Shown here piece after piece: positions 17,352-49,127 of a DNA stretch of 64,000 nt. Below the pieces are notes generated by a model. That model ran no database searches and had not been told where the DNA came from. It was given only the letters and a program-made list of their open reading frames with translations. The position numbers and the translations under genes were made by a program. The number at the start of each line of letters is the position of its first letter. The first letter of the stretch is position 1. Origin of the DNA: a virus; the IMG/VR virus record IMGVR_UViG_3300045988_182459, positions 66,120 to 130,119 of that record. One strand, 5' to 3'.

Positions 17352-18050
17352 ATGAACACCAACACTATCACTATCAATTCCAAGAAAGCTATCCCCGGCA
17401 TCAATGATGTGGCTACTAAGTGCCCTGCAGCAGCCAACATGTGGGGCAGCAAAAACGCTTGCTCTCCAAATGAGGTATCTGCAGGCAACAACAAAATGGC
17501 ATGGTTTGTCTGCCCCGATTGCAAACAGGAGTTTAAGGCTCCCGTTTGCAACGTCGTCAATTCTTTGTTGCATGACAATACCGGTTGCCCTGTTTGTGCA
17601 GGTCGCAAAGCTGTTTTCGGCGTCAACGATTTGGCGACCATGTATCCAAAAGCCGCTGCTATGTGGAGCGGCAAGAACGATTACGCCCCCAGCGAAATTC
17701 CTGCTCGGTCGTCCAGACGCGCAATTTTTGCGTGCCCCGATTGCAAACAAGAGTTTGTGACAAGCGTCCACAACATGACGCGGGCTATTGCATCCGGTGT
17801 TACTTGCTGCCCCAATTGCAGAATGCGAGGAAATACTATCGGTGCGATTTACAAGGATGAGTATGGTTCGCCAAAATCTGTTGGCACTACGATGACGATG
17901 AAGGACGGCAGCAAAGCCACCTGCACCGCTTATCATGGTGTCAACAACATCACCGTCGAGTTCGAAGACGGGTTCGTTCTGTACCATGCTCGCTGGAATC
18001 AGTTTATCCGTGGCGTTCTTCACCACGGTCAGAAAACCACTGAAGAATAA
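17352..18050 (+). CDS. zinc-ribbon repeat protein (DUF4379-like repeats G.NDLAT..P..A.MW....CPDCK.EF)
   Basis: Three CxxC-bearing repeats. A conserved 5' leader block is shared with the 18180 gene. Confidence 0.7.
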   Translation: MNTNTITINSKKAIPGINDVATKCPAAANMWGSKNACSPNEVSAGNNKMAWFVCPDCKQEFKAPVCNVVNSLLHDNTGCPVCAGRKAVFGVNDLATMYPKAAAMWSGKNDYAPSEIPARSSRRAIFACPDCKQEFVTSVHNMTRAIASGVTCCPNCRMRGNTIGAIYKDEYGSPKSVGTTMTMKDGSKATCTAYHGVNNITVEFEDGFVLYHARWNQFIRGVLHHGQKTTEE

Positions 18051-18179
18051 TAAAAAGCCATCTGATACGAAGTTGGCTTGTGAATGTGAATGTAGCAGCT
18101 ATCATCTTCCTCCAGTAGGGGGATGGTCGCTGCTTTTTTATTACAAGCCTCGAATGTTACGAGGAGAAAGAGAAAAATT

Positions 18180-29054: not shown

Positions 29055-30487
29055 CGAGCTTATCGCAGGCCGCAGCCCTTGATAGAGGCTCACTCTCCAC
29101 AGACTTTAAGATTCGGTCGTCCTGACCGTACTGTTCGCCTGTGGTTATGAGGTGGCTGGCATAGCCAGCATGTCCATTCCTTTCTTTAGAATATTTTCTG
29201 CTGCATTTTTATCCCTATCGTGTGATGTATTACACTTCGGGCAGACCCAATGCCGCACATTGAGGCTTTTAACCTCTTTGTTTTGGTATCCGCAGCAGGA
29301 ACAGGTCTGGCTGCTTGGATAGAATGTTGGTACTTTGACAACTACTCTTCCTGCCCAACTGGATTTATAATCAAGTTGTCGAAAAAATTCTCCCCAAGAA
29401 GCGTCAGAAATACTTTTAGCAAGGTTACGATTACGAACCATACCCTTTACATTGAGGTCTTCTACACAGATGATTTGGTTTTCTTTCACCAGTGTGGACG
29501 ACAACTTATGTAGGGTATCTTTTCGTTTGTTGGTTATTTTTTCGTGGCAGCGAGCCACCTTGATGCGCTGCTTTTCCCAGTTGGCAGAGCCTTTCTTCTT
29601 GCATGACAGTTTTTTCTGCTCACGCTTTAGTTTAGCTTCCGCTTTCTGTAGATACTTATGGTTTGGATGTTCGTTTCCATTGCTGTCAACAGCAAAAGAT
29701 TTGATGCCAACATCCAAGCCGATAGCGACATTCTTAACAGGAAGCGGTGCTACTTCTACTTCGCAAAGAATGCTTACATAGTATTTTCCGCTTGCTGAAC
29801 GACGGATTGTTGCCTTGCAAATACGACCTTCAATGTTGCGGCTTTTGCGATAGCGCACCTTTCCAAGTGTAGGAAGCTGAATGTACTTATCGTCAACTTT
29901 AATGCTTTTTGCTTTAGTAGTTGTATAACTTTCTTCTCCTCTTTTTCGTTTGAATTGAGGGAATCCTTTACCGTCTTTGAAAAAGCCTTTATAGGCATTA
30001 TCTAACTGACGACAGCTATATTTGAGTGCTTGGCTATCCGCTTCAGCAAGCCAAGGAAGATAGGTCTTCATCTGAGGAAGTAGATTTTGCGTATCAATAT
30101 AGCTCATGCTTTCGCCGCGCCGCCTATAGGCTTTTATTCGCCTATCTAATATAGAGTTATATATAAAGCGGCAGCAGCCGAGCGTTTTATTGATTTTTAC
30201 TTCCTGCTCTTCTGTAGGCTCTAGCCGAAATTTATAGCCTTTATGTACTTTCAAGGTGATTCACCTCCTTTATGGATTTTTGTACTTGTGAATTGGTCAA
30301 ACCCCCGGAAAAAGTTGAATAGCCTGTTTTTCTCCTCCCACAATTCTTTCTAACATAATTATATCATATTTTACAGATGGACGGGCCAAAATCGCAACTT
30401 TGTTCATGAATACTTAACCTTTATGCACGAGATTTATTGTTGCCCTAATATATAAAACTAGAGCCCCGTCATCTTGGATGGGGCTCT
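29055..30487 (-). mobile_element. IS200/IS605-family TnpB-only (IS1341-like) element
   Basis: Contains the TnpB gene. Subterminal hairpin AGAGCCCCGTCATCTTGGATGGGGCTCT at 30460-30487 (left end). Right-end hairpins CGGTCGTCCTGACCG and GCTGGCATAGCCAGC near 29115-29172. Boundaries are approximate. Confidence 0.6.
29145..30254 (-). CDS. tnpB: TnpB (IS200/IS605 OrfB RNA-guided endonuclease)
   Basis: RuvC motifs [18 protein letters not shown] and [12 protein letters not shown]. Zinc finger CSCCGY...CPKCN. Confidence 0.9.
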
Positions 30488-30616
30488 TGAGTTGTAGCTG
30501 GAGGTGTATCTCATTTTGTGCCAGGGGTATTGTATGGTAGTTTTCGAAAATGAGTGCAAAAAAACAAACACCAGAAGTCAAACTCAAAAATATCTTAGTC
30601 TTGGCAAGTTTACCCT

Positions 30617-30643
30617 TGCGCTGCTGTGCGAACTTCGTACAAT
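30617..30643 (+). promoter_or_regulatory. box promoter site 0.5: TTGCGC-16-TACAAT with GTGCGAAC in the spacer
   Basis: Read directly. Followed by about 100 nt and then the terminator at 30746-30782. No credible ORF lies between them. Confidence 0.5.
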
Positions 30644-30745
30644 AAGAATTGTACAAGAGAAACGGCAAGAGACATTTGTAGTGATTGTAGTTGGTCGCCA
30701 CGAATCGATGCCGTGTCTGCTTGCGCATAATTACCTCTTTTCGAA

Positions 30746-30782
30746 GCCCACAGGTCATTCTCTCACCTGTGGGTTTTGTTTA
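30746..30782 (+). terminator. intrinsic terminator with a TTTTGTTTATTGCGG tail (overlaps the -35 of site 1)
   Basis: CCCACAGG...CCTGTGGG stem plus a T-run. Confidence 0.55.
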
Positions 30783-30810
30783 TTGCGGAATCGTGCGAAT
30801 TGCGGACAAT
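30783..30810 (+). promoter_or_regulatory. box promoter site 1: TTGCGG-16-GACAAT with GTGCGAAT in the spacer
   Basis: Read directly. Drives a roughly 390-nt leader before the flotillin operon. Confidence 0.55.
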
Positions 30811-30888
30811 TAAAGACAGAGCGATTGCGAGATGGGGCGATACCGATGCAGTAGGAATGAGAATCTTAGCAGCTAAAAGAGTCAACAA

Positions 30889-30924
30889 CCCCGCCTAAAC
30901 CGGTTCGCCGGTTATAGACGGGGC
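30889..30924 (-). repeat. GC-clamped REP/IS-end-like hairpin (inverted copy of the element at 40074-40105)
   Basis: The reverse complement GCCCCGTCTATAACCGGCGAACCGGTTTAGGCGGGG shares GCCCCGTCTATA...TTAGGCGGGG with 40074-40105. Confidence 0.55.
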
Positions 30925-31138
30925 TTGCGGGGCAACCTGTAAGCCCAGTTGATTAGCCTAAGCCCATTGCTCCGGCAGTGGGGAAAACTACGTTGTGTAC
31001 TAATAATATAGGCACCTTATCCATGCTCCACAAGTGGTGAGCTCTGCAGGCGTTTCGTTAAACATCTCCGAGGGGAGGAGAAGTGCGAGCGTCATGTCGA
31101 AAGGCTAAAACAGTGCATAACATTGGCGAAGTGGACCA

Positions 31139-31177
31139 CAGGACGCAAGTCCTGACTTATAGTTTTATTACTATTTT
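31139..31177 (+). terminator. weak leader terminator just upstream of the flotillin gene
   Basis: CAGGAC-GCAA-GTCCTG followed by a U-rich ACTTATAGTTTTATTACTATTTT. Confidence 0.35.
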
Positions 31178-31198
31178 ACGAATGGAGAAACAAAAATT

Positions 31199-32842
31199 AT
31201 GGTATATGTGATTGCGATTGTGGCAGCCCTGATTATTCTCTTTGGATTTCTCTGCTACAAGAAAGCTCCGCCCACGGAGGCTATCGTTGTGACCGGCTTT
31301 GGTCTGTCTAAGCCTAAAGTAGTTTGCGGAAAAGGTACATTTGTTCTGCCCGTTCTTCAGCGGGCTGACCGGCTAAATATGCGCCTTCTGAAAATTGACG
31401 TCAAAACTCCTGAAACAGGTGTTAAGACGAAGAACGGCGTAAGTCTCTGGATTGACTCTGTTGTCACGATTCAAGTCTACAGCGAAAACTCTACCGTTCT
31501 GGATGAAGAAGTGAAGGCATCCGGTCTGAAAGACGCCAAGGCGTACATCATGTCCCGCCAACAGGCAGCCATCTCGAACTTTCTGGGCATGAACGAGCAG
31601 GGCATCAATGAGAAAGTTAATGACGTTCTGCAGGGCAATTTGCGTGAGATTGTCTCTGACATGACCGTCGACCAAATTCTGACGAACCGCAAGCAGATGG
31701 CTGTGAGCGTTATCGAGAATGCTCGCCCCGACCTTGCTAAGATGGGACTTGAGGTCGTGACTTTTAACGTCCAGGATATCAGGGATGCGGTGGATGTTCA
31801 GGGCCACAACCACGGCGTCATTGAGGCTATCGGCATTGAACAGGAAGAGCTTGTGAAAAAACAGGCTGAAATTGCCCGTGCTCAGGCTGCCCGTGATGTA
31901 GCCTGCGCGAAGGCCGATGCTGAGATGGCTGCAAATGCCAAGGAAGTTGAAGCGCAGACTGCGATTGCAAAACGCAACAATGAATTGCAGCTCGCCAAGG
32001 CAAAGCTGAAAGCTGAAGCTGATAAAGCTGCGGCTGACGCAGATGCTGCCGGTCAGATTCAGATGAATCTCCGCGCCAAAGAAATCAAAGAAGCGGAAGC
32101 GGATGCTGAAATCGCCAAGCAGAAGAAAATGGTAGACCTTGCCGCACAGGAAGCCGAGGTCCAGCAACGCAAACTGGATGCGGAAGTCCGCAAACAGGCA
32201 GATGCTGACCTGTACCGCCGCCAGAAAGAGGCAGAAGCCAAGAAATATGAGGCGGAACGTGCAGCTGAGGCACAGAAGTTCTCCAAGCAGCAGGAAGCAG
32301 AAGGCATTGAACTTGTCGGTAAGGCAGAAGCTGAAGCGATTCGTCAGAAAGGCTTGGCTGAAGCGGAAGCCATGAAACAGAAAGCAGAGGCATATAAGCA
32401 GTATAACGATGCGGCTGTGGCTGAAATGCTCATCAAGGTTCTTCCTGACATTGCCAAAAGCGTGGCTCAGCCTTTGTCCAGCATTGATAAGGTTTCTATC
32501 ATTGGCGGTGACGCCTCCGGCGTATCCGGCGTTTCCGGGAACGTTCCTATCCTGATGGCTCAAACCATGCAGACGGTGAAAGAAGCGACCGGAATCGACA
32601 TGGGCGAAATTGTCCGTGCCAACAGCATCCAGGCAAAGACCGACCGCAACATCAACATCATGAATCAAGGCGAACAGCCTGTGAATAGTGAAAAGGAAGG
32701 AGGTGTCAATGCTATGGAACGCGTAGAAGGCGGCTATCTAATTCATGAGAAGAGTCTCAACGGTGAGGAAGTCACTCATTTTCGACCGGATGTGACCGAA
32801 GAAGAGAAGGCTATCATGAAAGACAAAAAGGCCAAAGATTAA
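31199..32842 (+). CDS. flotillin-like SPFH/band-7 protein with a long A/E/K-rich coiled coil
   Basis: N-terminal TM helix. SPFH core ...VVTGFGLSKPKVVCGKGTFVLP.... An (AEA)n-rich helical C-terminus, as in FloT/YqiK. Confidence 0.8.
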   Translation: MVYVIAIVAALIILFGFLCYKKAPPTEAIVVTGFGLSKPKVVCGKGTFVLPVLQRADRLNMRLLKIDVKTPETGVKTKNGVSLWIDSVVTIQVYSENSTVLDEEVKASGLKDAKAYIMSRQQAAISNFLGMNEQGINEKVNDVLQGNLREIVSDMTVDQILTNRKQMAVSVIENARPDLAKMGLEVVTFNVQDIRDAVDVQGHNHGVIEAIGIEQEELVKKQAEIARAQAARDVACAKADAEMAANAKEVEAQTAIAKRNNELQLAKAKLKAEADKAAADADAAGQIQMNLRAKEIKEAEADAEIAKQKKMVDLAAQEAEVQQRKLDAEVRKQADADLYRRQKEAEAKKYEAERAAEAQKFSKQQEAEGIELVGKAEAEAIRQKGLAEAEAMKQKAEAYKQYNDAAVAEMLIKVLPDIAKSVAQPLSSIDKVSIIGGDASGVSGVSGNVPILMAQTMQTVKEATGIDMGEIVRANSIQAKTDRNINIMNQGEQPVNSEKEGGVNAMERVEGGYLIHEKSLNGEEVTHFRPDVTEEEKAIMKDKKAKD

Positions 32843-32963
32843 AGACAACGAATAAAAAGAGGGTGACTCGAAAGAGCCATCCTTTTTTCTGTTGTGACGC
32901 AAACGAAAAGTTCATGGTAGCCATCCAATTAGGGTGACTGTCTTTTTTGCATGTTAAGGCTTT

Positions 32964-32991
32964 GTTGCTGAATCGTGCGAATCGAAGATAA
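32964..32991 (+). promoter_or_regulatory. box promoter site 2: TTGCTG-16-GATAAT with GTGCGAAT in the spacer
   Basis: Read directly. Lies upstream of the 33063 gene. Confidence 0.5.
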
Positions 32992-33062
32992 TTAGAAGCA
33001 AAAGATACTTCGTATCAAGCCCTCTTGATAGCAAATAGAGTAAAACCGGAGAGGTGAAGTTA

Positions 33063-33866
33063 ATGCTCGGCGTGAGTTTGATTATCATAGCAGCGGCTAT
33101 AGTCTACATGGTCGAAACCTATATCAGCACCTATTACACTATCGAATACATGCACGGAACATCGCTGTTCCTTATCCTCCTTGCGAAATATGGCACGCCA
33201 GTCCTGTTCCTGCTGCTCTGCGCCTACATTGCATATCGCAATTTTCTCAAAAAGCAGAAAGCTGCGGCTTCTGCTGCATCTGAACGGTCTACAAGCAAAG
33301 AAGAGCTGTATACCAACAAAATTCAAACGGCAGTAAAGACAAAAAGCGTCTTCTCAGAGCAGGCTGACCAAATGCTGTATCAGGTACGGCGCTTCGGGCA
33401 AAAAATGGCCGTTGCCTACAGCATGACCCAGGATAGCAAGACATCCGGGGAACAAGCCAAGTGCCTAACGTTATTGGAATCCGCAGAACGTATCTTCTAT
33501 GACCGACTGGATGACGCGATTCGCTCGGCTTCAATGTTTGATGAAACGGAATACAAGGCTTTCTGTCAAGGCTCTATCTCGTTTGGAAACAAAGAAGAAG
33601 CGCAGAAAAAGAAAGAAATCTACAATGGTATCGTAAGTACCGTGGATAAGGTAGTTCATGACAATGAGCGCTTAATCCTCCGATTGGATTCTTTAGCATA
33701 CGCTCTGAACCAACGTTCTGCCCAGAATCCGTGGGATACAGAGGTTGTCCTCGCAATGTCTAAGCTAGACGCTGTCATCAACAAGACGACGCAGGACATC
33801 GAGCAGGATGAAGTAATCAGTCGTGAGGCTATGAAACGATATAACAACTTGAAAGGAGAAATTTAA
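33063..33866 (+). CDS. membrane protein (two N-terminal TM helices plus a helical cytoplasmic domain; XpaC/TelA-like architecture)
   Basis: RBS GGAGAGG 8 nt before ATG 33063. No confident family. Confidence 0.55.
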   Translation: MLGVSLIIIAAAIVYMVETYISTYYTIEYMHGTSLFLILLAKYGTPVLFLLLCAYIAYRNFLKKQKAAASAASERSTSKEELYTNKIQTAVKTKSVFSEQADQMLYQVRRFGQKMAVAYSMTQDSKTSGEQAKCLTLLESAERIFYDRLDDAIRSASMFDETEYKAFCQGSISFGNKEEAQKKKEIYNGIVSTVDKVVHDNERLILRLDSLAYALNQRSAQNPWDTEVVLAMSKLDAVINKTTQDIEQDEVISREAMKRYNNLKGEI

Positions 33867-33867
33867 C

Positions 33868-35562
33868 GTGACAAAAAAGAACATTTTCCCTGTAGTTGCA
33901 ACCATTGCTGTGGTAGGCATTGTTCTCGGAGTTTTTTCGATGACGGTGATGAGGGACTCAAACGTCAGCATTAGTACAATGACGTCCGAGCAGGCATATG
34001 CCAACTTGAGCAGCAAGATGAAGCGCATCGGCGTGCAGGAGGTCAAGGTCAATCCTCAGCAGCTGGATGTCTCTGAATTCCTTGATGCAAAGGATGAACT
34101 GCCCGACATTGAATCCTCCTACCCATTCGTGGTCGTAGGAAACGGAGATGTGAACATCGAAATCTTTTCCTCTGGCGAGAAAGCAGCAGAGTCCGGCTCA
34201 GATTCTTTCCTGACAAGCATGGCAAAAAAGTTCAATGCCCAGCACAACAAGACTTCCGGAGACAAGACTATGAGTGTCTCCCTGCGCTCCGTTCCGTCCG
34301 GTACGGCGGCTGAGTACATCTCGACGGGAAAGTATCAGCCCGAGTGCTATACCCCCTCAAATACGCTCTTTGGCGAGCTGGTGAAGAACGAGGGCGTAGA
34401 ATTGACCGTTGAGGCTGACCGTCTGGCCGGCAATGTGGCGGGTATTCTCGTATCAAAGAAGACAGGGGATATGCTTCGCTCTGAATACGGTGAAGCGTCT
34501 GTTTCTTCCGTTCTGAACGCAACCATCGATGGCAAACTCATGATGGGATACTCGAACCCCTACACAAGTGCTACGGGTCTTAATTTTCTGCTTGAGGCTC
34601 TTGCAAGCAGTGGCAGCGATACGATTGTCGATACGGCTGCTGTTGAGAATTTCCAGAAATTTCAAGCGAACGTCCCTCTCGTATCCTTCACGACCCAGCA
34701 GATGGTCCAGTCGGCTGACAAGGGTATCGTGGACGGTGTCGTGATGGAGTACCAGTCTTATCAGAATGACCCGACCTTGCAGCGCAACTACGAATTCATC
34801 CCGTTCGGTGTACGGCACGATAATCCTCTGTATTCCATCGGGAATGTCTCTGCGGAGAAGAAGGAAGTTATTGCTGCGTTCGTTTCCCTCTGCGCCCAGA
34901 ATCAGGCAGAAGCGACGAAGGACGGGTTCAATGGTCTTGACGACTATGCTTATACAGGCAAGGCATACGACGGTAACACCATCGCACAGGCTCAGAGTGT
35001 CTGGAAAGAAGAGAAGGACTCCGGCATTCCTATTGTGGCAGAGTTCGTTGTCGATACTTCCGGCTCGATGCGCGGCGAACCCCTGAATGCCCTGAAAACC
35101 GCAATGATAAACACCATCCAGTATATCAATGACGACAACTATATCGGCATCATTGGCTTTGATTCAGATGTCAGGGAATACCTGCCCATTGACCAGTTCT
35201 CTCTGACCCAGAAAACTCTGTATAAGGGTGCCGTGAACTCCCTCGATGCGAACGGCAGCACCGCAATGTACAACGGTCTTTGCGTTGCTATGGACCGCAT
35301 CTACCAGAAATCTCAGGAACTGGGTGGGAATTGCACGCCCATCATCTTTGTGCTCACGGACGGTGACAACAATACCGGATATGGCTTCTCCGATACGAAG
35401 AACATCATTGCCGGTATGGATATCCCCATTTACACCATCAGCTACAACTACGCAGCGGATAGTCTTTCGGAGCTCGCTTCCATCAACGAAGCGGCAGCTA
35501 TCGTTGGTAACAGCGAGGATATCACCTACAAGCTCCGCAACCTGTTTAACGCAGAGATGTAA
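33868..35562 (+). CDS. membrane-anchored protein with a C-terminal von Willebrand factor A (vWA) domain
   Basis: N-terminal TM helix. MIDAS motif DTSGS, then ...GSTAM... and LTDGDNN. RBS AAAGGAGAA 7 nt before GTG. Confidence 0.75.
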   Translation: MTKKNIFPVVATIAVVGIVLGVFSMTVMRDSNVSISTMTSEQAYANLSSKMKRIGVQEVKVNPQQLDVSEFLDAKDELPDIESSYPFVVVGNGDVNIEIFSSGEKAAESGSDSFLTSMAKKFNAQHNKTSGDKTMSVSLRSVPSGTAAEYISTGKYQPECYTPSNTLFGELVKNEGVELTVEADRLAGNVAGILVSKKTGDMLRSEYGEASVSSVLNATIDGKLMMGYSNPYTSATGLNFLLEALASSGSDTIVDTAAVENFQKFQANVPLVSFTTQQMVQSADKGIVDGVVMEYQSYQNDPTLQRNYEFIPFGVRHDNPLYSIGNVSAEKKEVIAAFVSLCAQNQAEATKDGFNGLDDYAYTGKAYDGNTIAQAQSVWKEEKDSGIPIVAEFVVDTSGSMRGEPLNALKTAMINTIQYINDDNYIGIIGFDSDVREYLPIDQFSLTQKTLYKGAVNSLDANGSTAMYNGLCVAMDRIYQKSQELGGNCTPIIFVLTDGDNNTGYGFSDTKNIIAGMDIPIYTISYNYAADSLSELASINEAAAIVGNSEDITYKLRNLFNAEM

Positions 35563-35681
35563 CTCAAAAGCGCGGTTTTGTCCGCGCAGCTGCTCCAAAA
35601 GACAGCCTCCACGCGGCGAGCAGCGGGCAACGGGAGACAGTCCCGGCAAATTGTCTTTGAGACGGAAGGAAGAAGTGCCCT

Positions 35682-36071
35682 ATGCGAGTACAACAGGTTC
35701 CGAACTCACCCTATTTCATCCATTACGACGATGAGGGCTTTTGCTGTATATCCAAAAGCAGAGAAAGCCAAGAACCTATCCCGGAATCTGAGATGCAAGC
35801 GTTCCTTGATGCAGTAGCCAACGGGTTACTCTACATCGAGAAAGAGCGAAAGAGCAGATACCAGCGCATCGAAGAAGCCGAAAAAGCAGCTTTTGCCAAG
35901 GGTGAAGCGGAAGGTCGAGAAGATAAGCTGCTCGCCACAGTCAAGGAGCTGAAGGAAGAACAAGCGTCAAGAGCAGAGTATGAGCGCAAGCTGCAATATG
36001 AAGTATATGCTCATCATACTTCGCACACCACGAAAACCGAGTGGGTTCGCCTTGGTCGTGGAGGATGGTGA
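35682..36071 (+). CDS. hypothetical protein
   Basis: 129-aa ORF with a coiled-coil-like central region. Confidence 0.5.
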   Translation: MRVQQVPNSPYFIHYDDEGFCCISKSRESQEPIPESEMQAFLDAVANGLLYIEKERKSRYQRIEEAEKAAFAKGEAEGREDKLLATVKELKEEQASRAEYERKLQYEVYAHHTSHTTKTEWVRLGRGGW

Positions 36072-36076
36072 TTGAC

Positions 36077-36415
36077 ATGATGGGAAGCATTCCGATTCCG
36101 AATACAAGATTTTATCTGACCAGCATCGATGGCAAAAAGTGGTTCGTAACAGAATACTACAGAACCGCACCATTTAACCCCGACAAAGAGACCTATGACT
36201 TGTACAAGGCGTTTGCGGAAGCATTCAGAAAGAACGAAATGGAAGAGCAGGAGTTTCAAGAGGAGCTCAAAAAGGCCGTCAATAAAGCTTACGGAAACGG
36301 CTTATACGCCGGACGGCATAGTGTTGATTTCTGGCGGCAACCAGCTTATCATGAACTACGAGCAGGCACAGGAATTGTTCGGCATCAAGTTTCGGCGCTG
36401 GCTGGGCATCTTTAA
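36077..36415 (+). CDS. hypothetical protein; possible frameshift near 36300 (the alternative frame continues to 36422)
   Basis: The N-terminal part is coding-like. The last ~40 codons look out-of-frame (R/H-rich). The +1 frame reads a natural-looking ...GIVLISGGNQLIMNYEQAQELFGIKFRRWLGIF. Confidence 0.4.
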   Translation: MMGSIPIPNTRFYLTSIDGKKWFVTEYYRTAPFNPDKETYDLYKAFAEAFRKNEMEEQEFQEELKKAVNKAYGNGLYAGRHSVDFWRQPAYHELRAGTGIVRHQVSALAGHL

Positions 36416-36430
36416 CCTCTAATATGCATG

Positions 36431-36466
36431 GCAGGTTCTTTTCGGAGCCTGCCTTCTTATTTCGCA
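36431..36466 (+). terminator. rho-independent terminator
   Basis: GGCAGGTTCTTTTCGGAGCCTGCC followed by TTCTTATTT. Confidence 0.55.
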
Positions 36467-36473
36467 AAAATAG

Positions 36474-36501
36474 TTGCCCATTTGTGCGAATTGCAGACAA
36501 T
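36474..36501 (+). promoter_or_regulatory. box promoter site 3: TTGCCC-16-GACAAT with GTGCGAAT in the spacer
   Basis: Read directly. Confidence 0.5.
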
Positions 36502-36584
36502 CAGAAATAAAGCGTAAAGCAAAGGAGTTGAGTACCATCTCAAAATTTGCAAGCAAAAAGTTGATTGAGCGAAATTGCAATATC

Positions 36585-37052
36585 ATGAAAGACTACGGCA
36601 ACGGCTATTCCATTGAGGAGCTTGCCGCAAAATACAGGTTGAGCGTCCGTACATGCTATCGAGCGTTAGACGACGCGAAACAGGAGGCCAGAATTCAGTT
36701 GGCGCAGGTAGAGGATGCTAGAAAGGCCGAAATTCTTGCGGCATACAAGAACAGTGTCCCTCTCAAGGAAATGATTGCGAAATTTAACGTGGCAGAAGGA
36801 TATTGCAGCATGGTTGCCAACGATGCGGGCCTGACTGAAAACCGTAGAAATGAGCGCATCAAAATTCGGCAAAAACCCCGCAATGAGAATATCTTTCGAG
36901 AATACGAGAGTGGCGTGCCGGTGCAGAAACTATCCGAAAAATATCAGCTCTCGGTTCCTGGTATTTACAAGGTTATCCAGCGAGTGAGAAGGCAAAAGGA
37001 GGCGATGAGTCTTGCAATGGATTGTGAAGCAAACCAAATCGAAAGGATATGA
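36585..37052 (+). CDS. DNA-binding protein with three tandem HTH modules (sigma region-4 / HTH_23-like repeats)
   Basis: Repeats YSIEELAAKYRLSVRTCYRAL / VPLKEMIAKFNVAEGYCSMV / VPVQKLSEKYQLSVPGIYKVIQRV. Start codon is uncertain (weak RBS). Confidence 0.5.
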   Translation: MKDYGNGYSIEELAAKYRLSVRTCYRALDDAKQEARIQLAQVEDARKAEILAAYKNSVPLKEMIAKFNVAEGYCSMVANDAGLTENRRNERIKIRQKPRNENIFREYESGVPVQKLSEKYQLSVPGIYKVIQRVRRQKEAMSLAMDCEANQIERI

Positions 37053-37650
37053 GTTCACCTTCGATATCGTGAAAGGCAAGGCCGTTATCGGGCAGGCACA
37101 CTATATCCCGAAATTGCTACGGCAGGGTTATGGCATCCGGCTGAATGATTCCAAGTTCCTGCTGCAATACATGCCAGCTGCTGACGCAAGGGCGTACATG
37201 CGCGGCATCAACACAAAAGATATTCTGAGACACCCTTTTGCTATCCGTGAGAACAACTGCACGGTAGGCGAGATTTCCGTCATCCATACAAAAACCGGAT
37301 TCCTCCAAGGATACAATTCTATCGCCATGCAGCTGTATGGCGAGGAATACCAGAGCTACAAAATTGGTTTTGGAAAAGAAGGAGTATGCTGCCCTGTATT
37401 TCTTGGCGGACAGCAAATCGCCCAAATCAATAAGAGCGCGGTGGTCAAGGATAATCTGGATGAATACCTGATTTACGCAGTGAATGAAAAGGCACTGATG
37501 CCGTCCGTCATGTTCGCCATTTATATTGATGGAATATACTACGCAAACCGAGGCATGTATGTGGATGACGCAACGACTATCAACTGCGAATACAGCTTGA
37601 ACGAGGAAGTCCTGTCCCACTACGACCCGAATTTTGTCAAAGGACTATGA
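37012..37650 (+). CDS. hypothetical protein
   Basis: RBS AAAGGAGG 9 nt before TTG 37012. Overlaps the upstream gene end. Confidence 0.5.
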   Translation: MQWIVKQTKSKGYEFTFDIVKGKAVIGQAHYIPKLLRQGYGIRLNDSKFLLQYMPAADARAYMRGINTKDILRHPFAIRENNCTVGEISVIHTKTGFLQGYNSIAMQLYGEEYQSYKIGFGKEGVCCPVFLGGQQIAQINKSAVVKDNLDEYLIYAVNEKALMPSVMFAIYIDGIYYANRGMYVDDATTINCEYSLNEEVLSHYDPNFVKGL

Positions 37651-37683
37651 CTCCGATAACTGGTATTCACAGACAATATCATG

Positions 37684-37711
37684 TTGCGAAACTGTGCGAA
37701 TTGCAGACAAT
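37684..37711 (+). promoter_or_regulatory. box promoter site 4: TTGCGA-16-GACAAT with GTGCGAAT in the spacer
   Basis: Read directly. Confidence 0.5.
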
Positions 37712-37750
37712 TAAAAGTGAATGAATTACAAAAGCTACAGAGGATAAACA

Positions 37751-38350
37751 ATGAGCTATGAACCCATTATCACACCGGGCAGGAATTTCTTTCTTGTCTC
37801 GACGGAGTACAAAGAGAGCAGCTCTGCCTGGTGCCGCAAGCAAATTAGAGCGACACTGAGGACCTGTCAGGGACGAGTCATCATCATTGATGCAACGGGC
37901 GAGTACGCGGACTTGGCGCTTGAACATGACAGATTGATTCGAGAGAAAATCCCGTCCATCATTTATCGGTATAAGCTGGTGGACGGGAAACCGTATATTG
38001 CTCATGTCATTGAAGTTGATACGGAAGCAAATGAAGCACCGCACCTGATTGTATACGATATCAGCCGGACCATAATCACCAGCTGGAAGGTCGGCGTGGA
38101 GGCAATTGATAAAATCCTACAATCCTATGCCGTGATGCAGGACAGTGAAATCGCGTGGCTGTATGTTCCGCTGGACTTATATACCAATGTCAAGCCCGAA
38201 AGCGAATCCTGGAACATTTTGGAACGAACTATCAAGGGTAATGAAGGCAAGCTCATGACAGTACTGACGACTCGCAAATTCACCATTGGGATGGTCCAGC
38301 GCTGTTTGCATATGGCAAAAATCAAAAATAATTTGGAGGATAACAAATGA
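37751..38350 (+). CDS. hypothetical protein
   Basis: RBS AGAGGATAAAC before ATG. 199 aa. Confidence 0.5.
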   Translation: MSYEPIITPGRNFFLVSTEYKESSSAWCRKQIRATLRTCQGRVIIIDATGEYADLALEHDRLIREKIPSIIYRYKLVDGKPYIAHVIEVDTEANEAPHLIVYDISRTIITSWKVGVEAIDKILQSYAVMQDSEIAWLYVPLDLYTNVKPESESWNILERTIKGNEGKLMTVLTTRKFTIGMVQRCLHMAKIKNNLEDNK

Positions 38351-39234
38351 CCAATGAACAGCTGAGAATCGCATTGACGGCGAATGCCGTTACCAAACAA
38401 ACCCGAAACCATTTTGGATTCAGTGACCCGTGTGGAAAAACGCTGGAAGAATACAACAAGTCCGCGATGCTGTGCTGCATGACAGCGGCGCAGAGAATGA
38501 ACACGCCGGGTTTTGAGCGTGTTTTGGCTGCGCAGATTTTTCCCTGCTTTACCATTGGCTGCTGGAATCAGACGAAGACGGTCTATGATTTTGACTACGA
38601 GTTTCAGAAAATGCTGATGGATACGGATGACGTGGCAATTCATCAGGATATCCTGCAGCGACTCCCGGTTCGTGATTTCTTTATCCCGGTGTATGACAGC
38701 TACGACTACAACGGTATGTTCGTGCATGTGGAATTCGACGAAAAAGAGAAAACCACAGCTTTCGGTATCGTTCTTGTCGGCCCCACTAAGGGCAGCCACG
38801 ATGATTTCACGTTCCTGACTCTGCCTGCCTGGGCCAAGGAAAATCAGAGTTTGACGGAAGCAACTCGGAGCACGAAAGAATACCTGGAAAAGGCAGCAGG
38901 GCAGCGGCAAGTAAATGGTATCAGCGTACCGGCTGCGATGGAAGCAGTCCCTTCGGTCTTTGACGGCGGCACACCTTATGTCCGGCTGGCAATCCTGTGC
39001 GCCAACTATCTTGCCAGCAAGAACCCTGATGTCTGCTTGGAAACTTCCAAAAAGCGTGACCGCCCGGTATTCGTGTTTCAGGGAAAGGCACAGCGAATCA
39101 ACGTCAAGACATATACCGTTGGTGAGAATGCGGCCAAAGAATACAAAAAGAATGGGGAAGGCAAAACTCCCCGCTGGCGGCATTACTGGTGCGGCAATGG
39201 CCGGGAACGCCGGGAATGCAAGTTTATTTACTGA
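38347..39234 (+). CDS. hypothetical protein
   Basis: Start overlaps the upstream stop (ATGA). 295 aa. Confidence 0.5.
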   Translation: MTNEQLRIALTANAVTKQTRNHFGFSDPCGKTLEEYNKSAMLCCMTAAQRMNTPGFERVLAAQIFPCFTIGCWNQTKTVYDFDYEFQKMLMDTDDVAIHQDILQRLPVRDFFIPVYDSYDYNGMFVHVEFDEKEKTTAFGIVLVGPTKGSHDDFTFLTLPAWAKENQSLTEATRSTKEYLEKAAGQRQVNGISVPAAMEAVPSVFDGGTPYVRLAILCANYLASKNPDVCLETSKKRDRPVFVFQGKAQRINVKTYTVGENAAKEYKKNGEGKTPRWRHYWCGNGRERRECKFIY

Positions 39235-39252
39235 TGGCGGTGAGGGTGAATC

Positions 39253-39960
39253 ATGGCTCCCCATACTTATCAGGACCCGATTGGGTTCTATGAATGGTTC
39301 GATGACCTTCCTTATGCTATCCAGGATAGTATTCTGAAACACCTGCCGCATATGGAAGGCGAGGAATGGCTCATTGTCATTATCCTTGCAGCTCTTCTTC
39401 TGATGATTCTGGTTTCAGCGTATCTGTGCTATGCAAGGCATAATGTCAAAAAAACGAGTGAACGACTCAACGCTTTGAAAGAACTGAACAACACGACTGA
39501 ATTCATGCCGGTCGAGGCGCAGTACCGCTACTATCTACGTTCTGATACGAAGCTGGAATTCGAGGAGTTCTCGCTCCCGAAGTTCTTTCGCCGTGAAGTG
39601 AGGGAAAACTTCAAGCTGTACAATACCCTGCTTGGCAATGCTCGGGCAAACACGGTATTGTATGAAACATATGGCCGCGAGATTCAGGAACTCCCGGAAT
39701 GGACGGAATCGGATGACGATTGCGGACGGCATATCCCGTTCTTTCTCTACCGCAACATTGAGAAGGAACTGTACGATGAAACGGTTCTGGATTGTCCCGT
39801 GACAACTCCTGAATTCGTCTGCACGAAAAGCTACCTGCCCAAAGACGCTAAGAATCCGATTGAGATGGAAGAGACCTATACGCTGGAGGAACTGGAAGAG
39901 TACATACGCCGCTTGAAGGTTGCAGCCGATGTCAAGAAGAACAGCCAAAACGCAGGCTAA
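39253..39960 (+). CDS. hypothetical membrane-anchored protein
   Basis: One TM helix (EEWLIVIILAALLLMILVSAYL). 235 aa. Confidence 0.5.
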   Translation: MAPHTYQDPIGFYEWFDDLPYAIQDSILKHLPHMEGEEWLIVIILAALLLMILVSAYLCYARHNVKKTSERLNALKELNNTTEFMPVEAQYRYYLRSDTKLEFEEFSLPKFFRREVRENFKLYNTLLGNARANTVLYETYGREIQELPEWTESDDDCGRHIPFFLYRNIEKELYDETVLDCPVTTPEFVCTKSYLPKDAKNPIEMEETYTLEELEEYIRRLKVAADVKKNSQNAG

Positions 39961-40073
39961 AAGGGTAGCGGCCAAAGGCAAGAGGCAAGACTCCGTGGCT
40001 GTCAGTTGCAGAACGTCTTCACACCTGAATTCTTGAATTTTGCCAGTGCTTTGATGAATAATGAAGAGCGCAC

Positions 40074-40105
40074 GCCCCGTCTATAGCCGTAAGGCTTAGG
40101 CGGGG
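40074..40105 (+). repeat. GC-clamped REP/IS-end-like hairpin GCCCCGTCTATAGCCGTAAGGCTTAGGCGGGG
   Basis: Homologous to 41858-41888 and, inverted, to 30889-30924. The GCCCCGTC arm also occurs in the IS hairpin at 30460-30487. Confidence 0.55.
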
Positions 40106-40163
40106 TTAGCTCGTGTTTTGGAGCAGAAATCAGAAATTATTGTTTTCCGTTCTGATAAAGGTA

Positions 40164-40191
40164 TTGCCTGGTTGTGCGAACTGGATACTAT
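40164..40191 (+). promoter_or_regulatory. box promoter site 5: TTGCCT-16-TACTAT with GTGCGAAC in the spacer
   Basis: Read directly. Lies immediately upstream of the RBS and GTG of the TnpB-like gene. Confidence 0.5.
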
Positions 40192-40216
40192 AAAATTATA
40201 GTAAACTGCAAGGGAG

Positions 40217-41710
40217 GTGAGTGCTTTGAATATTACATCCAGCTATCAGGTGAGAATCGTCAATTGCAGCGTAAACCTCAATGAGACTGTTCGCATTTAT
40301 CGCAAGGCACTTGCCTACCTGATTGGTGTTGTCAATGAAAACTGGGATGCCGTCAAACGCATTGATACCGGCAATCTTGAGCAGCAGCACTATATTGACA
40401 AGCTAGTTCATGGCACCAAAAATCATGAGGCTAAGTATCCTGAATTTGATAAGCAGTTCTATAAGTACCCGTCGTATTTGCGCCGTGCAACTATTACGGC
40501 CGCCATTGGCGCGGTAAGCGGCTATCACAGCAATCTAGCTAATTGGGAAATGTCCGACAAAAAGGACAAACAGCCTACTCTTCAAGTAGATAGAAAAGCT
40601 TTTCCTACATTCTTCCGCGTTGATATGTTCCTTGTGGACGGCACACCCGAAAAGGTGAAAGTCGTAAAAAATCCTAAACCGAAGGATGAACTCACGGCAG
40701 AAGAAAAGAAAATCGAGAAAGCAAAACGCAAAGCTGCTGAATTACAGAACTCTCAAAATGAACTGACGGTTTTGAGTAATCACTGTACCGTTCGCTTGAA
40801 AGTTTTCTATAAAAACGACTGGGTGTGGGCAACTGTCACGCTGCGTAAAACGGATATTGCCTATTTACGCAAATACTGGATGCACGCTTGCTCGTCAGCC
40901 CCTATGCTCGAAAAGCGTTTCGGCAAATACAGCCTGCGCTTTGCTTTTGAGGAAAATACTACTCTTAGTGATACTCCTATCGATAAGCAGCGCGTCTGCG
41001 CCGTCGATTTAGGTCTCAATACCGATGCGGTGTGCAGCATCATGACCGCTGATGGAACTATCCTTGCCAGGAAGTTTATCAACTTCCCGAGTGACAAAGA
41101 CCATCTGTATCATGTACTTAACCGCATCAAGAAGTTCCAAAGGCTGCATGGGTCCCGGGAAGCGCATAACTTTTGGGCCTATGCAAAGCGCGTTAATGAT
41201 GAATTGTCCAAAAAGATTGCCGCCGCGATTGTAGAATTTGCGGTCCTCTATTCTGCCGATGTGATTGTTTTTGAGCACTTAGATTTCAAAGGCAAGAAAT
41301 CATCGTGCAAAAAGCAAAAAATCCAGATGTGGCGTAAAAATGGTATCCAGCGCATTGCGGAACATAAAGCGCACCGCTGCGGTATTCGTATCTCGCACAT
41401 CTGCGCTTGGGGGACTAGCAAACTTGCGTATGACGGCAGCGGCGAAGTGAAACGCGCACCAGATAACCATTCCCTTGCTACTTTTACAAGCAGCAAACAA
41501 TACAATGCGGACTTGAATGCGTGCTACAACATCGGCGCACGCTATTTCATCCGTGAGGTAACAAAACCCATGTCAAAAAAGGCATGGTCTCAATGCAAGG
41601 CTGAAGTTCCTGACATTGAGCGTAGAACCCAATGCACTTTACACTCTCTCAGACAGCTGCATGCCTTTTTGAGCACTCCAAAAGAGGCTCAGCCTGAAGC
41701 AGCCGCCTGA
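40217..41710 (+). CDS. TnpB-like (IS605 OrfB family) RuvC nuclease lacking the canonical zinc finger; paralog of 47285..48616
   Basis: RuvC-like motifs CAVDLGLNTD, VIVFEHLDFKG and NADLNACYNIGARYF. No CxxC...CxxC. RBS AGGGAGG before GTG. Confidence 0.75.
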   Translation: MSALNITSSYQVRIVNCSVNLNETVRIYRKALAYLIGVVNENWDAVKRIDTGNLEQQHYIDKLVHGTKNHEAKYPEFDKQFYKYPSYLRRATITAAIGAVSGYHSNLANWEMSDKKDKQPTLQVDRKAFPTFFRVDMFLVDGTPEKVKVVKNPKPKDELTAEEKKIEKAKRKAAELQNSQNELTVLSNHCTVRLKVFYKNDWVWATVTLRKTDIAYLRKYWMHACSSAPMLEKRFGKYSLRFAFEENTTLSDTPIDKQRVCAVDLGLNTDAVCSIMTADGTILARKFINFPSDKDHLYHVLNRIKKFQRLHGSREAHNFWAYAKRVNDELSKKIAAAIVEFAVLYSADVIVFEHLDFKGKKSSCKKQKIQMWRKNGIQRIAEHKAHRCGIRISHICAWGTSKLAYDGSGEVKRAPDNHSLATFTSSKQYNADLNACYNIGARYFIREVTKPMSKKAWSQCKAEVPDIERRTQCTLHSLRQLHAFLSTPKEAQPEAAA

Positions 41711-41857
41711 TGTAGATGTACTGTGTTGCGACAACTTTGCGGGAGACTAACCCTTATGTGGTGACCAATGCCGTCAGGCGTTGTGAGCTAAGTTTGGGCT
41801 GTATCTCTACCTTCGGGTAACGCAGAGACTTACCGTGGGGCTACAACCCACGGAGAA

Positions 41858-41888
41858 GCCCCGTTTAAGCCGCAAGGCTTAGGTGAGG
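41858..41888 (+). repeat. GC-clamped REP/IS-end-like hairpin GCCCCGTTTAAGCCGCAAGGCTTAGGTGAGG
   Basis: About 150 nt downstream of the TnpB-like stop. Homologous to 40074-40105. Confidence 0.5.
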
Positions 41889-42013
41889 AGGTTCACATTC
41901 TGCGGGCATTGACAAACAGCCAAAAATGTGCTTAGGTTAAAAATCCTTGCAAAAACGTACGATACCCATACAATAAGCACAAATGAAATAACGAATGAAT
42001 AGGAGATATAAAC

Positions 42014-42622
42014 ATGAGTGAACAGAAAGAAAATGCTCAGCTCGAAGCTTATCGGACTCTCGTTGACGATTTCAAGCGCTTCGTCAGTTCTGAAATTCGG
42101 GCAGAGGAGAACAGCTACCGGATTGTGGACATGACTTCCGAAGATGCCGAAATCGATGACCCGAGCGTTCCGGTGACTCAGCTGGAAGATGAAAAGGCGG
42201 AGAAGCTCGCCGGTATCTGCATGGACCTGTCCAACGCTACGCTGTGGCTCTACTACAACCGCGATAAGTTTGCGAACGTTGAGTTTATGCCTCTGAAAGA
42301 GGAGACTTTGAAGGAATACCAGAAGCAGGCTCAGAATGCTCTGAATGAGCCGAAGAGCCCGCTGTTCCTGAAATCCTGGTATCAGCTCATTGAAATGTTG
42401 AGTCAGGAATGTATCCCGCAGCGCTACGAGGACGACGGTCAGCGATATACAGACGTCTATGTGAACACCTATATGCTCATGTACCTGACCATGACCCGAC
42501 TCAAGAACGGCGGAACTTTTACACGCCTTGCAAACGGGCAGGGAAGCGATGCTGTGAAAATCACGACCATCGCAATGTACTACTTCTCCAGCCTTTTGAC
42601 GGTTCTCTGCACCGAGTACTAA
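42014..42622 (+). CDS. hypothetical protein
   Basis: RBS AATAGGAGATATAAAC before ATG. 202 aa. Confidence 0.5.
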   Translation: MSEQKENAQLEAYRTLVDDFKRFVSSEIRAEENSYRIVDMTSEDAEIDDPSVPVTQLEDEKAEKLAGICMDLSNATLWLYYNRDKFANVEFMPLKEETLKEYQKQAQNALNEPKSPLFLKSWYQLIEMLSQECIPQRYEDDGQRYTDVYVNTYMLMYLTMTRLKNGGTFTRLANGQGSDAVKITTIAMYYFSSLLTVLCTEY

Positions 42623-42679
42623 GCAGCATTTTCCCGCGTGAGTGATAGCGCTCATGCGGGAATTTTTTGTAATTTTCTA

Positions 42680-42707
42680 TTGCTAATCTGTGCGAATTGC
42701 GTACAAT
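42680..42707 (+). promoter_or_regulatory. box promoter site 6: TTGCTA-17-TACAAT with GTGCGAAT in the spacer
   Basis: Read directly. Confidence 0.55.
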
Positions 42708-42740
42708 AGCAAATATAAAGTAGAAGTATATCGAATCGCT

Positions 42741-42778
42741 GCCCCGCATGAATTGCTTGTGCGGGGCTTTTTGTTTGC
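42741..42778 (+). terminator. leader terminator with a CTTTTTGTTTGCGG tail
   Basis: GCCCCGCATGAATTGCTTGTGCGGGGC plus a T-run. About 35 nt after the -10 and directly before the RBS of the 42791 gene. Confidence 0.6.
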
Positions 42779-42790
42779 GGAAAGGAAATG

Positions 42791-42992
42791 CATGATGTAC
42801 GGTTTATCAGAAGAGAGCTTAACGATTGTTGGTGTTATTTTGATTGTGGTTGGTGTCGCTATGATTGGTTGGGGATTTGAATGGAATCAGGACATTACCA
42901 ATGATAAACGGGTCGGAACCGTTGTCAGAGACATTGGCGTTATGGTTTTGGCAACCGGCATTATATTTGTGATGCAGCGGGCAATGAACTAA
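42791..42992 (+). CDS. small membrane protein (two TM helices)
   Basis: RBS GGAAAGGAAATG. 67 aa and hydrophobic. Confidence 0.45.
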
Positions 42993-43007
42993 ATTGGGAA
43001 AATGTAA

Positions 43008-47106: not shown

Positions 47107-47284
47107 CGCATAAGCGATAACGGAAGCCTTACAGTGAATCCTCCCACGACTAAAGTCGCGGGCTTCCCGCTCCTTTTATGGGTAGCGGCGTTCTAACGAA
47201 AGATACGGTAATCCCTCAGCTCAGGCGTCCAGACGGGAGCCATCACCGCAAGAAAACTAATAACTCAGTTAGCATCTGTACATC

Positions 47285-48616: not shown

Positions 48617-48634
48617 TGCGAAGCCCCCCTTTCA

Positions 48635-49054
48635 TCAGTTTCTTATTTTTTGAGATGCAATGTATTCTTGTACTTGTTTGCGCGTGTTATCACTGACGGT
48701 TGCAATAAAGTAGCTTGGGTTCCAAAGATGCCCGCCCCAAAGTTGCTTCTTCAAGTCCGGATTGGCGATAAAAATAGCTCTTGCACTGTTGCCTTTAAGC
48801 ACTTTTATCATATCCGGGATAAAATGCTGCGGTGAACACTCCACCAACAGGTGAATATGGTCAGGCATGCATTCCATTTCTACAATATTGATTTTTATGG
48901 TTTCGGCGGTCTGCTGCAGAGACTCTTTTAGCGATTGTTCTGTTTCGTTTATCAAAACTGGTTTTCTGTACTTTGTACACCACACAATATGATATTGAAT
49001 ATTGTAAACATAACCTCTACCATATGACAGGTTATTATTGACGAACATTTGCAT
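48635..49054 (-). CDS. tnpA: IS200/IS605 TnpA (Y1 HUH transposase)
   Basis: YHIVWCTKYRK ... HIHLLV ... Y motifs. 139 aa. Confidence 0.85.
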   Translation of the reverse strand: MQMFVNNNLSYGRGYVYNIQYHIVWCTKYRKPVLINETEQSLKESLQQTAETIKINIVEMECMPDHIHLLVECSPQHFIPDMIKVLKGNSARAIFIANPDLKKQLWGGHLWNPSYFIATVSDNTRKQVQEYIASQKIRN

Positions 49055-49127
49055 AATATCACCATAATTATTATACCATATGTGAGATTACAAATCAAGA
49101 GAAAAGTCGCCTAACTCATGACTGAAG

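Follow-up and report, generated by a model that had tools for sequence, protein, structure and literature searches.

Hairpins of a gut phage-like genome as end structures of a TnpB-like insertion sequence and of an IscB-type remnant

Most tnpB elements lack a tnpA gene, one TnpA transposase mobilises both TnpB and IscB elements with related ends, and the HEARO region that lies upstream of iscB has the right end of the transposon as its border; the transposon-adjacent motif (TAM) reported for GstIscB is TTCAT (Meers et al. 2023, bioRxiv 10.1101/2023.03.14.532601). A 64,000-nucleotide stretch of viral DNA (IMG/VR record IMGVR_UViG_3300045988_182459, positions 66,120 to 130,119; hereafter the window) contains a family of GC-clamped hairpins of about 32 nt, of which copies A and C flank a TnpB-like gene and copy B lies inverted in the leader of a flotillin gene. 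A preliminary description of this DNA had compared the hairpins to the ends of IS200/IS605 or REP (repetitive extragenic palindromic) elements and had suggested that the nuclease was co-opted by a regulon promoter. In this study, A, B, and C are assigned, with a probability of roughly 0.9, to the subterminal imperfect palindromes of IS200/IS605-superfamily elements, namely a whole TnpB-type insertion sequence (IS) with A and C at its ends and the leftover of an IscB-type element marked by B. The coordinates are collected in Table 1.

The boundaries of the TnpB-like element, its target motif, and its polymorphic presence were observed directly by comparison with related loci, which are designated by L-numbers; L001-L010 are contigs from the same kind of genome that encode an 87%-identical nuclease. 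In these contigs the element is located between the genes for a 295-aa and a 235-aa protein, and in the window between the genes for the 235-aa and a 202-aa protein. The occupied window site reads ...GTGCTTTGAT / GAATAATGAAGAGCGCAC[A]...[C]AGGTTCAC / ATTCTGCGGGCATTGAC, where slashes mark boundaries, and its vacant counterpart in L001 reads ...ACACTTTGAT / ATTCTGCGGGTATTGAC. Conversely, the occupied L001 site reads ...CTATTGAT / GAACTATGAAGAGCGCAC[hairpin]...AGGTTCAC / GGGATGAGG, and its vacant counterpart in the window, at about 39234, reads ...TTTACTGAT / GGCGGTGAGG. At the left junction the window sequence ...GCTTTGAT / GAATAATG... corresponds to ...CACTTTGAT / ATTCTGCGGG in the empty L001 site. 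The reciprocal empty sites, a comparison suggested in the preliminary description, therefore define the element as 40056-41896 with base-exact ends, inserted 3' of TTGAT without a target-site duplication. TTGAT is presumably the target and TAM pentanucleotide of ISDra2. The earlier proposal that A and C delimit the TnpB-like element was thereby borne out, with both ends fixed and the left one adjoining TTGAT, and C lies within the predicted omega-RNA scaffold just before the guide.

Table 1. Positions of the features discussed in the text, numbered from the first letter of the window
Feature	Position	Strand	Basis or remark
Non-autonomous IS200/IS605-family element, 1,841 bp	40056..41896	+	Left end (LE), promoter, TnpB-like gene, omega-RNA/right end (RE)
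TTGAT target / TAM, immediately 5' of LE	40051..40055	+	Occupied vs empty site
Copy A, left-end subterminal hairpin, 18 nt inside LE boundary	40074..40105	+	Same position in all relatives; covariation
Promoter box TTGCCT-GGTT-GTGCGAA-CTGGA-TACTAT	40164..40193	+	Repeat family D2, inside element
Divergent TnpB-family RuvC nuclease gene, 497 aa	40217..41710	+	Profile matches, RuvC alignment
Predicted omega-RNA scaffold	41709..41896	+	5' limit uncertain; fold and alignment
Copy C, subterminal hairpin at the right end and final stem of the predicted omega-RNA	41858..41888	+	Followed by conserved 8-nt tail
Flank that would be read as omega-RNA guide, ATTCTGCGGGCATTGACAAA	41897..41916	+	Adjoins RE
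IscB-type omega-RNA (HEARO) remnant: right end and omega-RNA	30881..31182	+	Rfam, sibling comparison
Copy B, IscB-type right-end hairpin, top strand = window minus	30889..30924	-	First internal HEARO stem on plus strand
Flank 5' of HEARO P1, would-be IscB guide, CTTAGCAGCTAAAAGA	30865..30880	+	Position relative to HEARO start
Canonical TnpB IS, 369 aa, IS200_TnpB 499 bits	about 28996-30331	-	L014 empty site
Second IS605-type element	47137-49094	-	tnpA 48637-49054 and 443-aa TnpB-like gene 47285-48616
Only Y1 (IS200-type) TnpA of the window	48637..49054	-	NCBIfam transpos_IS200 147.8 bits; Pfam Y1_Tnp 140 bits

At least nine further distinct insertion sites of the element family were found in IMG/VR contigs, where the element is 85-91% identical to the window copy. 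The LE is preceded by TTGAT or TTGAC at nine of ten distinct sites and by ATTAC at the remaining one. In every copy with a recovered right end, the RE consists of the hairpin followed by AGGT(T/C)CAC up to the boundary, and the 8-nt tail AGGTTCAC that follows C (41889-41896) is kept in all relatives. The imperfect palindromes are subterminal, are present at both ends on the same (plus) strand, and are not accompanied by terminal inverted repeats, as in IS200/IS605 elements. A megablast search with 39000-43000 against GenBank phages gave no match. Protein-less derivatives also occur: minimal elements of about 57 bp at a TTGAT site (L106, L114, L145, and L150) comprise the 18-nt left end, one hairpin, and AGGTTCAC. 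Nested within one 57-bp minimal element is an IscB element with an internal deletion, which keeps both ends and has no open reading frame (ORF) (L051:2084-2300).

The three hairpins were confirmed where the preliminary description had placed them, and their spacing to ORF 40217-41710 is 111 nt upstream for A and 147 nt downstream for C (about 110 and 150 nt in that description). Copy A reads GCCCCGTCTATAGCCGTAAGGCTTAGGCGGGG on the plus strand, arranged as GCCCCGTCTATA-GCCGTAAGGC-TTAGGCGGGG. Copy B, GCCCCGTCTATAACCGGCGAACCGGTTTAGGCGGGG on the minus strand, has 12-nt and 10-nt arms identical to those of A; its apical stem-loop differs from that of A, yet is self-complementary (ACCGG-CGAA-CCGGT). 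Copy C, GCCCCGTTTAAGCCGCAAGGCTTAGGTGAGG on the plus strand, is a degenerate copy with five arm substitutions. The exact 12-mer and the exact 10-mer, 5-25 nt apart, occur twice in the 64 kb, where about 1e-7 occurrences are expected by our estimate; the recurrence of the arms is far beyond chance. A fuzzy scan of the window, allowing up to three mismatches per arm, returned A, B, C, and one match with six mismatches at 28802-28827, which was regarded as spurious and not as a fourth copy. As single-stranded DNA (ssDNA), A, B, and C fold better than shuffled sequences (z between -2.8 and -4.3). The tails following the hairpins are TTAGCTCG for A, AGGTTCAC for C, and TTGCGGGG / TTGTTGAC for B.

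Covariation and strand specificity of the hairpin were directly observed in an alignment of 24 distinct hairpins, comprising left and right ends of TnpB-like and IscB elements from viral contigs and from Erysipelotrichaceae, Lachnospiraceae, Peptostreptococcaceae, and Thiovulum genomes. Pairing is kept in 97.8% of the cells of this alignment. Changes on both sides of a pair were found in 28 cells, compared with 7.7 in shuffles, and none of 500 shuffles reached the observed value. Compensatory changes occur at five pairs, from G-C to A-T in the clamp and from C-G to U-A or G-C in the apical stem, and pairing dropped to 29-57% when the register was slid. A T.G wobble is retained in 23 of the 24 hairpins. 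On the opposite strand it would be a C.A mismatch, and the fold is therefore strand-specific, as expected of a TnpA substrate. A bulged T is present in 19 of the 24 and substituted or absent in the rest. Apical segments closing with at least three pairs make up 30 of the 52 distinct ones, compared with 6% of random segments; the remaining 22 are mostly the same hairpins matched in reverse orientation.

Beyond the window, the exact-arm pattern was found in 27 stretches of a collection representing 185,579 species, most of them in Erysipelotrichaceae/Solobacterium metagenome-assembled genomes (MAGs) and often at contig ends, as expected for a multi-copy IS, and in 106 stretches in IMG/VR. This wider search shows the hairpin to be rare and, at every site with available context, associated with TnpB-like or IscB/HEARO elements. 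At dozens of sites, TnpB-like and IscB elements have these arms at both of their ends, with covarying apical stems and the strand-specific T.G wobble.

Linkage to transposase genes was observed in two autonomous relatives, L168 on a viral contig (nuclease 85% identical) and L024 in an Erysipelotrichaceae MAG (nuclease 43% identical). In both, the order is LE hairpin, divergently oriented tnpA, TnpB-like gene, and RE hairpin, and their TnpA proteins score 129 and 137 bits, respectively, with Pfam Y1_Tnp. This layout is the defining IS200/IS605 architecture, and the association with TnpA is thus present in the relatives; the window copy of the element has no tnpA and is non-autonomous. Together with the boundaries and the covariation, the linkage to TnpA, TnpB-like, and IscB genes in relatives upholds the earlier reading of the hairpins as IS200/IS605-type end hairpins.

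Copy B had been described as an inverted solo copy in the flotillin leader. Its orientation and location stand, but the hairpin does not occur on its own: it forms the first stem of a HEARO RNA and an IscB-type right end. Rfam RF02033 (HEARO) matches the plus strand at 30881-31141 over the full-length model (1-211) with 91.2 bits, above the gathering threshold of 83. In minus-strand orientation, B reads as hairpin, TTGTTGAC, boundary, and flank, parallel to the hairpin, AGGTTCAC, boundary, and flank of the TnpB-like element. The family hairpin lies antisense, 8 nt from the HEARO start, in four bacterial loci (L030, L033, L039, and L041). Among the fetched viral loci, the right-end/HEARO start is found beside about 50 different flanks, with an IscB of 456-466 aa downstream at 21 sites. 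The left ends of full IscB elements, on the top strand, read ...TTCAT-like / A(T)AATTATGGAGCAGGAC-ACCCCATCTATAGCCGTAAGGCTTAGGTGGGG-AGGAATGCG and again contain the family hairpin.

Full elements continue as ...TTTTACGAAAGGAGTACCTTGCATG(iscB), given also as ...CTATTTTACGAAAGGAGTACCTTGCATG(iscB), whereas the window junction reads ...TTTTACGAA / TGGAGAAAC...ATG(flotillin), given also as ...CTATTTTACGAA / TGGAGAAACAAAAATTATG(flotillin). The comparison of these junctions indicates that 30881-31182 lost iscB and the left end by deletion, and such a one-ended remnant should be immobile. The gene after the HEARO encodes a flotillin (Band_7 and Flot), and a tblastn search of the window with a full IscB (from L001/L070) revealed no IscB. 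The same flotillin gene lacks the HEARO insertion in L019 and L131; this vacant allele differs by a few bases at the junction and, with the left end deleted, the original insertion point is not exact. The window HEARO is 86-89% identical to omega-RNAs still attached to iscB (the IscB-linked L056 copy scores 95.9 bits) and, judged by its sequence, looks as intact as a functional copy. The RNA is probably transcribed as a 5' leader from the flotillin promoter. Where the window has the flank that we infer to be the IscB guide, the vacant L019 site carries CTTAGCAGCTAAAAAA. A sensitive Rfam scan of 29500-43000 gave no second HEARO on the minus strand at copy A, and a literature search for standalone HEARO without IscB found nothing. 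A HEARO of 86 bits in a Lachnospiraceae MAG (L039:2887-4854) is followed by a 461-aa ORF; this ORF was rejected as IscB, its sequence being unlike IscB and giving no match to IscB loci by tblastn, and the locus may be another IscB-less HEARO.

The 497-aa nuclease has more than 4,000 homologues and a precomputed assignment to Pfam PF27142. It matches NCBIfam guided_TnpB with E=2.6e-15 and 56.6 bits (cutoff 100) and the TNB domain with 19 bits (cutoff 26.3), and the closest solved structure is a TnpB (PDB 9nzp, E=9e-7). Its RuvC D/E/D residues align with those of the canonical TnpB of the window (A3), and the zinc-finger cysteines (CxxC...CxxC) are absent. Downstream of the gene, conservation covers the 188 nt between the stop codon and the right end, and the structured region ends exactly at the RE. 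The fold predicted from the single sequence has z = -2.46. An alignment of ten sequences, among them three bacterial relatives and the paralogue, retains 13 of the 27 predicted pairs via double changes and shows a shared CGTATC core. A long-range pairing is predicted between AACC (41749-41752) and GGTT (41890-41893), immediately before the flank, and the window copy of C, as part of the predicted omega-RNA, needs G.U pairs found on the transcribed strand only. No Rfam family matches 41709-41896. The 20 nt following the right end match the vacant L001 site, TTGAT followed by ATTCTGCGGGTATTGACAAA, with one mismatch in 20. A guide flank that matches a vacant TTGAT site is a prediction of the TnpB homing model, and by analogy with the TnpB mechanism these nucleotides may serve as the guide.

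A mechanism can be proposed by analogy with ISHp608 and ISDra2. The Y1 HUH transposase TnpA would bind, and presumably cleave beside, the hairpins on the single-stranded top strand, and the TnpB-like element, with A as left and C as right hairpin, was inserted 3' of TTGAT without duplication. The right-end hairpin and AGGTTCAC double as the 3' end of the predicted omega-RNA scaffold; because the scaffold ends at the RE, transcription would enter the flank and pick up the guide. After excision, the TnpB-like RuvC nuclease would cut the donor joint, in which TTGAT adjoins the guide-matching flank, and the cut joint would be repaired from a copy still carrying the element. Copy B is a right-end hairpin of this kind too, here of an IscB-type element. 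Because IscB elements are transcribed in antisense relative to the top strand of the transposon, B is inverted and forms the first HEARO stem. The loss of iscB and the left end has left a presumably immobile omega-RNA fused to the flotillin ribosome-binding site.

The suggestion that the TnpB-like gene is domesticated, co-opted into the phage regulatory programme by a regulon promoter and no longer part of a free IS, starts from a correct observation. The box upstream of the gene is real, belongs to a family with 8-10 listed members, which all lie on the plus strand and have the form TTGC-N-GTGCGAA-N-TAcAAT, and wires expression of the TnpB-like gene to the promoter type of the host genome. 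That the element lacks tnpA, that its RE hairpin is degraded in the window copy, and that the box is absent from the autonomous L168, where tnpA fills the space, and from the bacterial L024 would also fit domestication. However, the box lies 109 nt inside the window element and 109-114 nt from the LE at five other insertion sites (L001, L011, L075, L167, and L169), and a box at a fixed place inside a mobile unit is therefore cargo of the element. Co-option is further contradicted by the reciprocal presence and absence in sibling genomes with base-exact TTGAT junctions, by the number of insertion sites, by the intact RuvC triad, and by a scaffold that still abuts a flank-derived guide, a hallmark of transposon-linked TnpB as opposed to domesticated relatives with fixed guides. 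A tnpA-less derivative with a host-type promoter is an IS adapted to its phage host and not evidence of domestication, which is considered improbable here.

The hairpin might instead be purely an RNA module, a guide-RNA stem read in sense in the TnpB omega-RNA and in antisense in HEARO, with no role in DNA transposition. The position of C in the predicted omega-RNA, its strand-restricted G.U pairs, and the modelling of B as a HEARO stem are all compatible with this. Yet copy A precedes the promoter of the element and is part of no omega-RNA, the hairpin at the left ends of IscB elements is located downstream of the iscB stop codon and antisense to iscB, and in the HEARO transcript the conserved T.G wobble becomes a mismatch. 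In addition, the hairpin keeps a fixed distance from both termini, and the 57-bp elements at TTGAT sites retain it between LE and RE tail. The RNA-only explanation is likewise considered improbable. Hardly credible is the idea that these are generic REP elements or intrinsic terminators with no connection to the TnpB-like gene, even though they are GC-rich stems in intergenic DNA and IS200-type TnpA is related to REP-associated transposases. No T-tract follows A, B, or C, as an intrinsic terminator would need, and a terminator scan of 30250-31250 flagged neither B nor another hairpin at 30460-30487. The low copy number, three in 64 kb and a single exact match within a contig of 268,512 bp, argues against a REP-like family. 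The window TnpA is of the IS200 and not the RAYT type, reaching 42 bits with REP_Tyr_transpos (cutoff 80) as opposed to 148 bits with IS200, and the hairpin stands at an IS end wherever context is available. The REP comparison of the preliminary description was accordingly abandoned.

Several points weigh against the assignment to mobile IS200/IS605-type elements. No TnpA of the L168/L024 type is encoded in the window, and the only TnpA there belongs to an element with a shorter right-end hairpin. The 497-aa nuclease falls under the curated TnpB thresholds and lacks the zinc-finger cysteines, and the omega-RNA is a prediction from a ten-sequence alignment that corresponds to no Rfam family. 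The 85-91% identity between the window and sibling copies suggests that movement was not very recent. Copy C is degraded, with one C.A mismatch and three wobble pairs, and ssDNA folding is predicted for its apical part alone; the window copy may therefore transpose poorly.

The second IS605-type element, to which the window TnpA belongs, encodes a nuclease 53% identical to the 497-aa protein. It has the shorter right-end hairpin, ends on the right as ...GCCCGCGACTTTAGTCGTGGGAGGATTCAC /, and has TTGAT just upstream of tnpA. Its TnpA is 33-36% identical to the TnpA proteins located between family hairpins in L168 and L024. A chimeric, tnpA-less element in L169-L175, at the same TTGAT, combines an A-type left hairpin with the right hairpin of the second element and hints at compatibility of the window TnpA with the family hairpins; mobilisation of the 40056-41896 element in trans by this TnpA is possible but unproven. 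The short hairpin of the second element also occurs at 26021-26056 (plus strand), where TTATTGAC comes next, a tail typical for right ends of the HEARO type. This looks like a stub of about 40 nt of an IscB-type end, and it supplies the last codons and the stop codon of the minus-strand ORF 26035-27579.

A further hairpin at 30460-30487 had been regarded as the subterminal hairpin of a neighbouring IS200/IS605 element. The hairpin exists and contains the noted arm GCCCCGTC; it lies in a divergent intergenic region and forms a strong GC stem-loop (ssDNA z = -5.7). Its attribution to the neighbouring canonical TnpB IS was rejected. The empty-site junction in L014, ...CATTGTTTTT / CTCCTCCC..., shows that about 130 nt separate the end of the IS from the hairpin, which is still present in L014 although the IS is missing there. 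In L021, which lacks the hairpin, a PIN/PhD toxin-antitoxin pair replaces the region. The 8-mer occurs five times in the window, compared with about two expected by our estimate, and the 8 nt shared with the family arm are weak sequence evidence of relatedness. The canonical TnpB IS sits between the ribosome-binding site and the start codon of a 465-aa gene, and the ORF is extended to 486 aa.

Other observations concern the surroundings of these elements. Promoter-like boxes of this family lie on the plus strand at 30616, 30783, 32965, 36474, 37684, 40164, 42680, 50766, 50982, 52356, and 59247. The conserved GTGCGAA in the box spacer suggests a dedicated regulator or sigma factor, and a Mor-like activator gene is located at 36474-37052. 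The 295-aa gene by the insertion sites (38347-39234, plus strand) has an L001 homologue annotated as AcrVA2-like (PF26125), and a Pfam scan of the window protein gave no match; an anti-Cas12 homologue beside TnpB-family elements may merit a look. A hepatitis delta virus (HDV)-like ribozyme of the F. prausnitzii type was found at 35589-35658 (plus strand) with 60.4 bits, above the gathering score. The core GACAGCCTCC.CGCGGCG is shared by two sub-threshold siblings, at 5165-5234 and 3868-3947 (38.3 and 32.7 bits; both plus strand). A repeat unit of about 51 nt, encoding CPDC...C motifs, is present in four copies at 17505-18990, within or near ORF 18123-19739, which has a PHROG match to an HNH endonuclease. 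The host genome has PHROG matches to a terminase, a DNA polymerase, and a tail protein, a sibling locus contains a tRNA array, and contigs of 265-271 kb recur; the genome looks like that of a jumbo phage.

A tentative and rather unlikely extension is that the OMEGA elements of this lineage are phage-adapted gene drives, in which tnpA has been swapped for a phage-regulon promoter and the HEARO has perhaps been kept. If this were true, the TnpB-like IS could, on co-infection, cut competitors at vacant sites and copy itself in, and the IscB-less HEARO could be a trans guide for an IscB elsewhere or a structured 5' untranslated region. Independently of this, the analysis provides base-exact ends, a TTGAT target/TAM, and a candidate omega-RNA and guide for a divergent, zinc-finger-less TnpB family, with possible use in the mining of compact RNA-guided nucleases. 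TnpB-like and IscB elements have one type of end hairpin in common in this widespread lineage of gut phage-like genomes of about 268 kb, which has dozens of insertion sites, protein-less derivatives, and omega-RNA-only remnants.

Compared with known systems, the element resembles ISDra2 and the IS200/IS605 TnpB elements, including the tnpA-less, IS1341-like ones, in having subterminal hairpins at both ends on one strand and in its insertion 3' of TTGAT without target duplication. As in IS200/IS605 TnpB elements, autonomous relatives carry a Y1 TnpA, and the element appears to share with them a RuvC tnpB-like gene followed by a predicted omega-RNA that would overlap the right end and take its guide from the flank. 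Unlike ISDra2-type TnpB, the nuclease belongs to PF27142, is 440-500 aa long, stays under the NCBIfam and Pfam TnpB cutoffs, and has no CxxC...CxxC cysteines, and the window copy has a host-phage-type promoter in place of tnpA in a phage-like genome of about 268 kb. The remnant in the flotillin leader resembles IscB elements with HEARO (ISGst IscB, Meers et al. 2023) in that RF02033 exceeds its gathering threshold, the transposon right end is where the omega-RNA begins, in antisense to the top strand, and the end hairpins are shared with co-resident TnpB elements; the TTCAT-like left-end flanks of the related IscB elements resemble the GstIscB TAM. Unlike ISGst IscB, the window copy lacks iscB and the left end, and its RNA is fused to the flotillin ribosome-binding site. 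The protein-less relatives that keep their ends, the 57-bp single-hairpin elements and L051 with both ends, are like PATEs and other omega-RNA-only IS200/IS605 derivatives, whereas the window HEARO keeps one end only and is a deletion remnant that should not move. The kind of element and its mechanism are thus not new, and an odd repeat resolves into textbook IS200/IS605 anatomy.

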